Origin: Escherichia coli O157:H7
GTDB taxonomy: Bacteria; Pseudomonadota; Gammaproteobacteria; Enterobacterales; Enterobacteriaceae
NCBI RefSeq assembly: GCF_013167455.1
Contig: NZ_CP038328.1
Length of the DNA: 64,000 nucleotides
Direction: 5' to 3' (one strand)
The translations under genes were made by a program, and so were the position numbers. The notes beneath the pieces are model-generated. The model ran no database searches, was not told where the DNA came from, and was given only the letters and a program-made list of their open reading frames with translations. This document shows positions 4,807 to 29,968 of the stretch, one piece after another (the stretch's first letter is position 1; each line of letters opens with the position of its first letter).

Positions 4807-5508
4807 TCAGAACGTTTTCTCGTTGGGTTGCCAGCGACAGAAATCAGAGTTTGCCACTAACAGTAATTGCGAACCTTCGGGCGCTTCCAGCCATGCCACG
4901 CTGACATCAACAGAAGAGCGGCTCTGGCGGCGCTCGATATGCGCTATTGCCTGCGAATCTAAATCAGGTTTAATGGTTTGCCCTTCGCAGGTGGTCACGG
5001 TCTGTTCCATCGCATGCCAGCGCCCCTGGCGCAGCACGACTCTCCCCTGACGTAAGGCATCGCTAATCTGGCGGATCTGATCAGCCCGATAACGGTATAA
5101 ATCGATTTGGTCGTTAGAAAGCTGCTGCTTTTCCCCATCGGATTCACGTTGCATAAAGCTCAGATCACCGCGATCGTCAAAACGCGCGCGAATATTCACC
5201 GGGGGTTTGCTGTAAACATTGATATTGATGAGCGTGAGGTTATCGCCCTGCCAGCGATACTCTCGCGTCGTGGTATCGCCACTGCGCCACGGGCTAAACA
5301 CGGCAAGAAAATGCACATTATCGCCGCTGTCTTTTCGCCAGATGCGTACCGCGCCCTGGTCTTCAGCAAATCCACTGGCGGTAAAGGGAGGAAGTGAAGA
5401 GTTGTGACTACAAGCAGTGAGAAACAGAGCGCCAGCCAGCATCAATGATCGACGCCAGAAAGACAAAAGGGGTGAAACCACCCCTTCGTTAAAACTGTTC
5501 ACTGCCAC
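4807..5508 (-). CDS. yjaH: DUF1481-family protein, probable lipoprotein (start codon uncertain)
   Basis: ORF track, 233 aa; position between zraP and hupA as in K-12; hydrophobic N-terminus ending ...LTACS. Confidence 0.8.
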   Translation of the reverse strand: MAVNSFNEGVVSPLLSFWRRSLMLAGALFLTACSHNSSLPPFTASGFAEDQGAVRIWRKDSGDNVHFLAVFSPWRSGDTTTREYRWQGDNLTLININVYSKPPVNIRARFDDRGDLSFMQRESDGEKQQLSNDQIDLYRYRADQIRQISDALRQGRVVLRQGRWHAMEQTVTTCEGQTIKPDLDSQAIAHIERRQSRSSVDVSVAWLEAPEGSQLLLVANSDFCRWQPNEKTF

Positions 5509-5514
5509 GCAATC

Positions 5515-5787
5515 TTACTTAACTGCGTCTTTCAGTGCCTTGCCAGAAACAAATGCCGGTACGTTAGCTGCGGCAATTTTGATTTCTTTACCGGTCTGCG
5601 GGTTGCGGCCAGTACGCTCAGCGCGGTGGTTCACTTTGAAGGTACCGAAACCAACCAGTTGTACAGCATCGCCTTCTTTCAGAGACTCAGTAATTGCAGC
5701 CAGAGTGGACTCCAGAGCAGCTTTAGCCTGGGTTTTGGACAGTTCTGCTTTCTCTGCAATTACATCAATCAGTTGAGTCTTGTTCAT
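5515..5787 (-). CDS. hupA: nucleoid protein HU alpha subunit, 90 aa
   Basis: Full-length match to HU-alpha ([90 protein letters not shown]). Confidence 0.97.
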
Positions 5788-23700: not shown

Positions 23701-24752
23701 AAGGTTTCAGAGATATACGGGCCGTGATCCAGATCATTGGTGAACAGCGTTTCGATACGCTTGTGACCAGACTGGCTCAGCTTAGCCAGCAGATCCAGGC
23801 TCAGCTCCATGTTCGCTGCGCAGATCAGCTCGCCGGTAGACTCATCAATATAGTCTTTAGCAACCACTTTACCTGCGATGTACTCAACCGGGACTTCGAT
23901 CAGTTTGACGTCGTCTTTTTCCAGCTGGCGAATGTGGCGCGCAGTGATACGGCGGCCTTTTTCTACGTACACTTTACCGTTAGCTTCGATGTCAAAGGAT
24001 GCGGTTTCACCACGCAGGCGTTCCGGCACCAGTTCCATCTGCAGCTTGTTATCACGGATTTCAAAGATAACTTTTTCAAAGAACAGGTCGAGGATCTGCT
24101 CTGTGGTGTAGTTCAGGGCACGCAGAATGATGGTCGCAGGCAGTTTACGGCGACGGTCGATACGTACGAACAGGTTGTCCTTCGGATCGAATTCGAAGTC
24201 CAGCCAGGAACCACGGTAAGGGATGATGCGCGCGTTATACAGCACTTTACCCGAAGAGTGGGTTTTACCTTTGTCGGAGTCAAAGAAGACGCCCGGACTA
24301 CGGTGCAGCTGGGAAACGATAACACGCTCAGTACCGTTGATAACAAAGGTACCGTTGTCTGTCATGAGCGGAATTTCGCCCATGTAGACTTCTTGTTCTT
24401 TAATGTCTTTTACGGTGCCTTCCGGCGCTTCGCGCTCATAGATCACCAGACGCAGTTTAACGCGCAGCGGTGCGGAATAGGTCACGCCACGGATTTGACA
24501 TTCCTGGACGTCAAACACCGGTTCGCCAAGGCGGTAGCTGACGTATTGCAGCTCGGAATTACCGCTGTAGCTCTGAATCGGGAATACGGAACGGAAAGCA
24601 GCTTCCAGACCATACTGCCCTTCAGGATCTTGCTCGATAAATTTCTGAAACGAGTCAAGCTGGATAGAAAGGAGATAAGGTACATCCAGAACTTGTGGAC
24701 GTTTACCAAAATCCTTACGAATACGTTTTTTCTCGGTATAGGAGTAAACCAT
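20724..24752 (-). CDS. rpoB: RNA polymerase beta subunit, 1342 aa
   Basis: ORF 20724..24785; canonical start [17 protein letters not shown] at 24752; 76-bp gap to rpoC. Confidence 0.98.
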
Positions 24753-25000
24753 AGGGTTCCTCAGCTCGCTGACAAGTCGACCCATCTGTCCATTGAGCGG
24801 ACAGTTTGTGCAACACTATTTTGTTGACCGGAAAATGGAACACTTTCCGCAATGCCTGTTGCTATCACGCTTAAACCATTTCATTGCGATTTACACAGAA
24901 CGGACGTCCTGTCGCAGTATATTAAGTCGTCGATAGAAACAAGCATTGAAAGGCACAGCAGTAGTCAAACAGTGTGAAACGCTACTGGTGCCTTACAGCG

Positions 25001-25032
25001 CAAAAAGGCTGGTGACTAAAAAGTCACCAGCC
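25001..25032 (-). terminator. rplL-rpoB intercistronic attenuator hairpin (partial terminator)
   Basis: Minus-strand GGCTGGTGACT-ttttag-TCACCAGCC followed by TTTTTGC, about 40 nt 3' of the rplL stop. Confidence 0.6.
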
Positions 25033-25071
25033 ATCAGCCTGATTTCTCAGGCTGCAACCGGAAGGGTTGGC

Positions 25072-25437
<366 letters not shown>

Positions 25438-25503
25438 TTAAATTGTTCCTGAATATCAGAATAAGTTTATACGTAAGCGAATGCGTTAAAAAGATAACTG
25501 CGA

Positions 25504-26001
25504 TTAAGCAGCTTCTTTCGCATCGCGTACAGCAGCCAGAGTACGAACCAGTTTGCCAGCCGAAGCTTCTTTCATGGTTGCCATCAGGCGTGCAATTGCT
25601 TCTTCGTAGGTCGGCAGAGTTGCCAGGCGGTCGATCTGAGACGCCGGGATCAGCTCACCTTCAAAGGCAGCGGCTTTGACCTCAAATTTTGCATTCGCTT
25701 TCGCGAACTCTTTGAACAGACGAGCAGCAGCGCCCGGGTGTTCCATAGAGTATGCAATCAGGGTCGGACCAACAAACGCGTCTTTCAGGCACTCGAACGG
25801 AGTACCTTCAACAGCACGGCGCAGCAGGGTGTTACGAACAACACGCATGTATACGCCAGCTTCGCGACCTGCTTTACGCAGTTCAGTCATTTTATCTACA
25901 GTTACGCCACGGGAATCCGCAACTACTGCAGACAGCGCGCCTTTGGCTACTTCGCTGACTTCAGCAACAATCGCTTGTTTGTCTTGAAGATTTAAAGCCA
26001 T
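25504..26001 (-). CDS. rplJ: 50S ribosomal protein L10, 165 aa
   Basis: Full-length match [80 protein letters not shown]... Confidence 0.97.
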
Positions 26002-26253
26002 TAGCTTTGCTCCTGGATGTTTGCCAGAGAAAATCTCTGGAACTCACTTCACTCCTCCAAACGGAGAGAGCGTCTTAATTACGGTGAGCAGAAACAAGCC
26101 AGAATATAAAAGAATAATCTTAGCGTTCTGTCACCGTCTACGCAGGGGATTAAGTTTCTTGCGAAACTCCTGCGGTCTTCGACGGAGGCCTGGATAGGCC
26201 AGGCTCCAACGAACAAATCTTTTTAGCTGCTAACTTTCGTTAGCATACGTGGG
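26002..26253 (-). promoter_or_regulatory. rplJ (L10) mRNA leader, the autoregulatory target of the L10-(L7/L12)4 complex
   Basis: Position between the predicted PL10 promoter and the rplJ start; function from established rplJL autoregulation, not verified by folding. Confidence 0.6.
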
Positions 26254-26259
26254 GGTAAG

Positions 26260-26288
26260 ATTGTAGACAAAATCACCGCCCACGTAAA
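26260..26288 (-). promoter_or_regulatory. candidate PL10 promoter (-35 TTTACG, 17-bp spacer, -10 TACAAT)
   Basis: Hexamers read on the minus strand about 30 bp downstream of the rplA stop. Confidence 0.5.
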
Positions 26289-26292
26289 GGCA

Positions 26293-27492
<1,200 letters not shown>

Positions 27493-27587
27493 TTACGGGC
27501 AAGACCCATAAAAACAAAAGGCGCGAAATTGTATTCCAATCTCGCGCCTTGTGCAACGATTAAATCGCCGCTTTTTTGATCGCTGGG

Positions 27588-28133
27588 TTAGGCTTTTTCA
27601 ACCTGGCTGAAGTCCAGCTCTACCGGGGTCGCACGACCGAAGATAGAAACAGACACTTTCAGACGAGATTTCTCGTAATCCACTTCTTCAACAACACCGT
27701 TGAAGTCAGCGAACGGACCATCATTAACACGGACCATTTCACCCGGTTCAAACAGCGTTTTCGGACGCGGCTTATCACCAACCTGCTGCAGGCGGTTCAT
27801 AATCGCATCGACTTCTTTATCGCTGATTGGCGCAGGACGATCGGAAGTACCGCCGATGAAGCCCATCACACGCGGTACGCTGCGCACCAGGTGCCAGCTC
27901 GCGTCGTTCATCACCATCTGAACGAGGACGTAGCCAGGGAAGAATTTACGTTCGCTTTTGCGACGCTGACCGCCACGGATTTCAACCACTTCTTCGGTTG
28001 GTACCATGACTTCACCAAACAAATCTTCCATGTTGTGTAATTTGATATGCTCACGCAGCGACGTTGCTACGCGGCCTTCAAAACCGGAAAACGCCTGAAC
28101 GACGTACCAGCGCTTTTTAGGAGCTTCAGACAT
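27588..28133 (-). CDS. nusG: transcription termination/antitermination factor NusG, 181 aa
   Basis: ORF track; [73 protein letters not shown]... with NGN and KOW domains. Confidence 0.97.
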
Positions 28134-28134
28134 C

Positions 28135-28518
28135 TCAGAACCTCAGGCCAGTGATAAAGGATACCAGGCGAACCAGAATACCATCCAGTCCCCACAGGAT
28201 CAGTGACATTACTGCGGTAACCGCAGCCACAATCAGCGTGGTGTGCAATGTTTCCTGGCGAGTCGGCCAAATGACCTTACGGACTTCGGTACGCGCTTCA
28301 CGGGCAAAAGCAACGGTAGCTTTACCTTTTGTCGTTAACAGCGCGACACCACCCGCTGCAGCAATCAGAATTACTACGGCCAGCGCACGCAGCGGCAGCA
28401 TAATGTCGCGATAAAGATAGTTGCCGACAATCGCCACCAAGAGCAATGCCACCACAACGACCCACTTCATCGCTTCCAGGCCGCGCCCGCTTCCTTGAGC
28501 TTCGGTATTCGCACTCAT
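28135..28518 (-). CDS. secE: preprotein translocase subunit SecE, 127 aa
   Basis: ORF track; three TM segments; 1-nt gap to nusG. Confidence 0.95.
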
Positions 28519-28689
28519 AAACCAACCTGTCAGAAGTTTTCTACAAACATTTTCACCCCGCGATCGCGAGGCAAACCAAATCGAAACGCGTATTAGCTTT
28601 TCGGATTATACGCCCTCAACAGAGCCTGTCTCAGCAATGATTATGACAAAGAAAATCACTGATGAGCCAGGTTCTGGTACGAAAGCGTG

Positions 28690-28718
28690 CAAAAAGGGCA
28701 TCAAATGATGCCCTTTTA
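28690..28718 (-). terminator. rho-independent terminator after tufB
   Basis: AGGGCATC-aaat-GATGCCCT hairpin with flanking A-run/T-run, 3' of the tufB stop. Confidence 0.65.
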
Positions 28719-28747
28719 GTGCGCATTGCGTCAAATGTTATCGGCAA

Positions 28748-29968
<1,221 letters not shown>

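Follow-up and report, generated by a model that had tools for sequence, protein, structure and literature searches.

ERIC/IRU elements are said to have been described by Sharples and Lloyd in 1990, by Hulton, Higgins and Sharp in 1991, and by Wilson and Sharp in 2006. The properties that define these elements have been summarised (PMC2229807, PMC3184786, PMC10969869): an ERIC is about 127 bp in size, has TA at its flanks and duplicates its target (PMC2229807, PMC3184786), and differences in presence or absence among E. coli strains are a described property of the family (PMC10969869). In Yersinia, furthermore, a transcribed ERIC can change how the mRNA is degraded by RNase E (PMC2229807, PMC3184786, PMC10969869, summarising De Gregorio 2005). 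The other described system of concern here is the rplJ leader, in which the site of L10(L12)4 is a kink-turn hairpin located well upstream of the ribosome-binding site (PMC3616713, PMC10931766). A literature search found no paper treating ERIC together with rplJ in a relevant way.

The window, that is, the whole 64-kb stretch of E. coli O157:H7 DNA analysed, carries with a probability of roughly 0.9 an ERIC-free allele of the rplJ (L10) leader, whose core is identical to that of K-12 and which would belong to an old allele class and not to a recent deletion. Just past the PL10 start site, K-12 and roughly two thirds of E. coli have an ERIC/IRU miniature repeat of 125 bp, which enters the transcript and is predicted to form a long hairpin of its own at the leader's 5′ end. 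Where these strains have the repeat, the present strain and about one third of E. coli have only a 7-bp hairpin with a GAAA loop, followed by TA. Nothing contradicts the reading as ERIC presence and absence, and the polarity is less secure. The features concerned are as follows, in the order of transcription.

26293..26997 (-), rplA (L1) coding sequence, from the list of open reading frames; an identical protein is annotated as L1 in O157:H7
26293..26295 (-), rplA stop codon TAA
26260..26288 (-), PL10 promoter: -35 TTTACG at 26283..26288, 17-nt spacer, -10 TACAAT at 26260..26265
26228..26245 (-), predicted 5′-proximal hairpin UGCUAAC-GAAA-GUUAGCA, 7 bp with a GNRA loop, about +9 to +26 of the PL10 transcript
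26224..26244 (-), allele-specific 21 nt, GCTAACGAAAGTTAGCAGCTA, in place of 142 nt in K-12
26224..26225 (-), TA dinucleotide where, according to the alignments, ERIC sits in long alleles
26002..26223 (-), shared L10 leader core, 222 nt, 100% identity to K-12
26184..26207, 26141..26174, 26081..26138, 26052..26070 and 26024..26040 (-), predicted hairpins of the core
26010..26014 (-), SD sequence AGGAG
25504..26001 (-), rplJ (L10) coding sequence, from the list of open reading frames; annotated as L10 in matching genomes

The rplA-rplJ spacer of the window, 26002..26292 (-), is 291 bp long versus 412 bp in K-12 MG1655 (NC_000913.3, with the rplA end at 4179583 and the rplJ start at 4179996), a shortfall of exactly 121 bp. 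A preliminary description of this DNA had set 291 bp against a remembered value of about 410 bp, and the computed lengths bear this out, the K-12 spacer not being itself about 291 bp long. The same description held the shortfall to be confined to this spacer. Indeed, the neighbouring spacers tufB-secE (229 bp), nusG-rplK (158 bp), rplK-rplA (3 bp), rplJ-rplL (66 bp) and rplL-rpoB (319 bp, counted from the rpoB start that gives a 1342-aa protein) have the lengths given there, equal to those of K-12 and also to those of an E. coli contig with the long allele (L035). Across the 501 bp compared, O157:H7 genomes and the window have the same sequence (100% identity).

The leader sits in the 5′ UTR of rplJ, downstream of PL10. 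This promoter, proposed earlier as TTTACG-17-TACAAT, is correct as proposed and is the sole sigma-70-like match in the region in a consensus scan (one match, with 0.2 expected from shuffled sequences). Its -35 element begins 4 nt and its -10 element 27 nt past the rplA stop; the promoter is identical in K-12 and is conserved in at least 19 enterobacterial loci. When the start is taken about 7 nt downstream of the -10 element, the leader is estimated at about 250 nt here versus about 372 nt in K-12, in agreement with the earlier figures of about 250 and 370 nt.

The pairwise alignment with K-12 that the preliminary description had called for, together with a computation of the common prefix and suffix, places the difference precisely. 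The first 48 nt of the spacer, with the PL10 promoter and the start region, and the last 222 nt, with the conserved leader structure and the SD sequence up to the start codon, are both 100% identical to K-12, and between these two blocks 21 nt are found here versus 142 nt in K-12. The 142 nt are made of 17 nt, AATGCTTAATGCAGACG, which form a weak small hairpin of 3 bp, and of the 125-nt imperfect palindrome of the ERIC/IRU. The 21 nt of the window are neither a subsequence nor a junction of the long allele, and no simple deletion of K-12 yields GCTAACGAAAGTTAGCAGCTA. The difference is a replacement, not a deletion within the regulatory RNA. The changed segment covers about +9 to +30 of the PL10 transcript, and all conserved leader hairpins lie 3′ of it; the preliminary description had suspected a deletion inside the autoregulatory target, which is not supported, as the 222 nt before the rplJ ATG are those of K-12.

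The 7-bp hairpin with the GAAA loop appears in both the MFE and the centroid folds, and has -9.4 kcal/mol when folded alone. After this hairpin, the leaders run in parallel: folding of the leader, another check that had been proposed, predicts the same downstream hairpins in the short and the long form, and in the predicted fold of the K-12 leader the ERIC folds independently of them. An alifold consensus of the core from 19 enterobacterial leaders has 54 pairs, 12 of which show compensatory changes. The K-12 rplJ leader thus shares with the window PL10 and all 222 nt to the ATG, including the conserved hairpins and the SD sequence, while it differs in having the weak 3-bp hairpin and the ERIC hairpin on the 5′ side, where the window has the 7-bp GNRA hairpin.

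The region bound by L10(L12)4 reportedly lies about 130–200 nt upstream of the rplJ ATG, according to work of Johnsen in 1982 and of Climie and Friesen in 1987-88, and would therefore fall inside the block identical to K-12. Since promoter, core leader and SD sequence are all identical to K-12, the translational feedback by L10(L12)4 should work in this strain exactly as it does in K-12.

A scan of 24500..28800 with Rfam RF00557 (L10_leader), likewise proposed beforehand, gave no match at E <= 1. The seed of RF00557, we assume, comes mainly from other phyla with a terminator-type mechanism. PMC3616713 may be compared on this point. The miss was considered as an argument against a leader of the E. 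coli type and was rejected, as the leader sequence is that of K-12.

Short and long leaders are both common alleles in E. coli, the short one being found in about one third and the long one in about two thirds of the genomes. The sample consists of 5,426 complete E. coli genomes, 5,420 of which have the locus. Matches covering at least 80% of the K-12 form were found in 3,639 genomes (long allele), including K-12 derivatives, a B derivative, W and O111:H8. The 36-nt junction of the short allele is contained in 1,778 genomes, always in single copy; carriers include O157:H7 strains, UTI89, 536, EC958/ST131 (with one SNP), ATCC 25922 and clone D i14. In the comparison with the K-12 form, LF82 likewise has the short allele. 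By phylogroup, the short allele is represented in B2 and E, and the long allele in A and B1.

These counts bear on two further explanations. A deletion of recent origin inside the L10 autoregulatory leader, specific to this strain and possibly impairing the feedback, is suggested by the difference in length from K-12 and by that only; it is nevertheless highly improbable, since the same allele occurs in that many complete genomes of many lineages and since the replacement lies upstream of 222 nt that contain all the conserved leader structure and equal K-12. Hardly conceivable is an assembly artefact, in which a palindromic repeat collapsed in the source genome: long palindromes can indeed be mis-assembled, but 1,216 complete genomes have exactly the same junction and 561 more have it with one SNP, and a collapse would not create a new sequence of 21 nt.

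Individual records show other changes. Two rplA-rplJ matches, each of the short allele, come from records that bear a plasmid label; these records are probably mislabelled or chimeric replicons. In E. coli Nord58 (L030, NZ_CP139846.1), the -10 region of PL10, at about 26-33 of the spacer, reads TT--CAACC versus TCTACAATC, that is, a 2-bp deletion plus a substitution. This change would weaken PL10, and could be a real mutation or an assembly error. In E. coli W5-6 (L028, NZ_CP032992.1), the central ERIC stem has lost one side through a deletion of 14 bp, which leaves a spacer of 398 bp; this is an example of ERIC decay in place.

The extra DNA in the K-12 spacer is, by the tests made on it (L001 1250..1374), recognisable as an ERIC repeat. 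The element is 125 bp long, close to the expected length of about 127 bp, and is bounded by TATATCCG and CGGATAG. Its centre matches the joined core of the ERIC1R and ERIC2 primers at 32 of 41 positions, the primer sequences having been confirmed from the literature, where 246 papers contain both. Folded as RNA, the element forms a single long imperfect hairpin, from UAUCCG to CGGAUA, in the MFE as well as the centroid structure. It is also multi-copy: at E <= 1e-3, the insert matches 13,119 places in 4,499 E. coli genomes, with a median of 3 and up to 6 copies per genome. Four intergenic paralogues, at pepB-iscX, aspS-nudB, hsdM-hsdR and yjbE-yjbF, align with it along the full length, and all four match the ERIC core better than the insert itself does.

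TA is found on both sides of the K-12 ERIC (GACG-TA-TATCCG ... CGGA-TA-GAAAAG), and the exact boundary of the element is not fixable from sequence alone. With its length of about 125 bp, imperfect palindrome, ERIC core, intergenic position, transcription and multiple copies, the K-12 insert is like described ERIC/IRU elements, and the window differs from them in being the unoccupied state. In the window, blastn with the K-12 insert (word size 7) found no ERIC-like sequence at the site or elsewhere in the 64 kb, the matches being at chance level and at most 17 nt long. From the comparison of GCAG-C-TA-AAAAG in the window with GCAGACG-TA-[ERIC]-TA-GAAAAG in K-12, we infer that the TA at 26224..26225 may be the unoccupied ERIC target site.

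For comparison with other Enterobacteriaceae, named GTDB loci were taken from a contig scan with a 21-mer of the leader core, and further contigs were found by exact look-ups of the L10 and L11 proteins. The scan gave 15 loci only, none from Escherichia, Salmonella or Klebsiella pneumoniae, although every E. coli leader contains the exact 21-mer; a species without a match in that collection may therefore still have the sequence. Across the loci so obtained, the site is structurally variable over the Enterobacteriaceae and the core invariant.

An ERIC is found at the same position in Huaxiibacter (412 bp spacer), in Pantoea ananatis (423 bp, diverged), in L036 and similar loci (419-420 bp), and in L047/L048/L051, L055/L062 and L059/L060 (412-414 bp). 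L036 has an rplA 93% identical to that of E. coli, and its L10 differs by A63V, P68Q and A75T. We take L036 and similar loci to be probably Salmonella, as the L10 differences match the Salmonella protein. Internally deleted ERICs occur in Klebsiella oxytoca (357 bp spacer), in L050/L054 (347 bp) and in L039 (CP034213.1; 346 bp), a close Escherichia relative with an rplA 98.4% identical and an identical L10. In Intestinirhabdus, the ERIC is expanded and the spacer measures 496 bp.

ERIC-free leaders, with spacers of 290-299 bp, are those of a Raoultella sp. (L012), L056/L061, L057/L058, L063 and L064. The last is CP000653.1, which we take to be Enterobacter sp. 638. In these leaders, a hairpin is followed by TA and an A-run at the place where ERIC sits in long alleles. 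L063 has a 16-mer identical to that of the window, GCTAACGAAAGTTAGC (GCTAAC-GAAA-GTTAGC), inside a 9-bp stem; the hairpin of L064 differs from that of the window in one loop base, that of L056 has one compensatory pair change, and that of Raoultella reads CTAACC-CC-GGTTAG. The ERIC-free leaders of L063, L064, L056/L061 and the Raoultella sp. thus have, like the window, a homologous 5′ hairpin and then TA and an A-run, while their flanks are species-specific and those of the window are E. coli-like, identical to K-12.

Two side observations concern these loci. Besides full copies, the locus has ERICs with an internal deletion (about 60-70 bp shorter) and an expanded one (about 84 bp longer, in Intestinirhabdus), and compensatory changes in the arms preserve the long hairpin (L005/L065/L066, L050/L054, L008). 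In L039 (CP034213.1), a gene for an IS200-like transposase (Pfam Y1_Tnp) lies between rplL and rpoB, at 5017..5629.

As to polarity, every ERIC-bearing allele has the small hairpin only (TCTGC-loop-GCAGA), and the extended hairpin GCTAAC-GAAA-GTTAGC is absent from all ERIC-bearing alleles sampled. The extended form is present in the ERIC-free alleles of four of the five lineages sampled outside E. coli, the fifth (L057/L058) having the small form only. Since the 21 nt of the window are not derivable from K-12 by deletion and the hairpin is homologous across genera, the short form is rather probably an old ERIC-free allele class, common to other Enterobacteriaceae and resembling an unoccupied TA target site, and this reading is favoured over a fresh loss.

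A simple deletion, or a terminal remnant of an ERIC, was also considered as the source of the short allele in the window and in Raoultella. It was rejected, as the hairpin corresponds to the small 5′ hairpin and not to the ERIC termini.

The opposite polarity deserves consideration. On this view, ancestral E. coli would have had the ERIC here, excision or deletion would have removed it in the ancestor or ancestors of B2 and E, and the 5′ hairpin would have been remodelled afterwards, so that the window would hold a derived deletion allele. The site contains an ERIC in the closest relatives sampled (L039 and the L036-like loci, probable Salmonella) and in several other genera; it is occupied in most of the taxa sampled, including Klebsiella oxytoca, Huaxiibacter, Intestinirhabdus and Pantoea ananatis; the internally deleted ERICs, with spacers of 346-357 bp, show that the element decays at the locus; and the flanks of the two alleles are identical in E. 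coli, with no elevated divergence that would mark an old polymorphism. We still regard this course of events as unlikely, though by no means negligible. The 21 nt of the window, being neither subsequence nor junction of the long allele, do not fit it, and the extended hairpin is common to ERIC-free alleles of other genera, once in identical form, which independent deletions are unlikely to recreate. It would also need two losses or recombination, as phylogroups B2 and E of E. coli are not taken to be sister groups.

For the preferred reading of an old ERIC-free class, the behaviour of the segment in other lineages is also of interest. L049 (GCA_019294355.1, 1086..1500) is a mosaic: compared with L036, its promoter is 100%, its downstream leader 99.5% and its rplA 99.6% identical, while its variable ERIC segment is much closer to K-12 (94.8% identity) than to L036 (71.8%). 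The mosaic implies that the variable segment has been exchanged between lineages independently of its flanks. Furthermore, the ERIC arms of the K-12 type and of the L036 type are no closer to each other than to paralogues. A single ERIC insertion event is therefore not established, and independent insertion or conversion is possible. Orthology of the two arm types was considered and found unsupported, the L036 type being no nearer to the K-12 type than paralogues are.

Polymorphism for the presence of an ERIC is of an already known kind and, as such, ordinary. For this strain, the comparison removes a false alarm: its L10 autoregulatory RNA is intact, and the K-12 reference is the form with extra, repeat-derived sequence. 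The coordinates of the K-12 L10 leader (about 370 nt) consequently do not hold for about one E. coli in three, O157:H7 and the B2 pathogens among them. In view of what ERICs do in Yersinia transcripts, it may be speculated that the two alleles differ in the stability or processing of the rplJL-rpoBC mRNA. ERIC-bearing and ERIC-free leaders offer a natural allele pair for relating an ERIC transcribed in a 5′ UTR to the mRNA stability of an essential operon.

A bolder idea, which we consider doubtful, is that the first 20-150 nt of the leader are an exchangeable cassette of at least three old classes (hairpin only, ERIC with arms of the K-12 type, and ERIC with arms of the L036 type), which would pass between enterobacterial genera in very short recombination tracts and be kept because each class gives a stable stem-loop at the 5′ end, by which the stability or processing of the rplJL-rpoBC mRNA is set. 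If this were true, the post-transcriptional set-point of L10, L7/L12 and the beta and beta′ subunits of RNA polymerase would vary systematically with the E. coli phylogroup.

The Rfam scans gave further matches under other family names. RF02858, Arrc08 (Actinobacillus sRNA 08), aligns along the whole spacer at 26001..26291 (-) with E = 3e-10; its scores, 45 bits in the window and 38 bits in K-12 (L001 1338..1605), are far under the gathering score of 219. The alignment suggests that the Arrc08 “sRNA” is the rplJ 5′ leader of Pasteurellaceae. An S15 match in the leader scan is at chance level. The K-12 ERIC (L001 1243..1371) has a weak full-length match to V_AS5 (Vibrio RNA AS5, “antisense RNA”; E = 1.6e-4, 30 bits versus a gathering score of 96), and this family is probably an ERIC-like repeat family. 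Finally, P26 (“Pseudomonas sRNA P26”) matches 25006..25067 (-) in the rplL-rpoB spacer with 74.5 bits versus a gathering score of 36; the matched region consists of a hairpin and a terminator-like stem, and is presumably the known attenuator region between rplL and rpoB.
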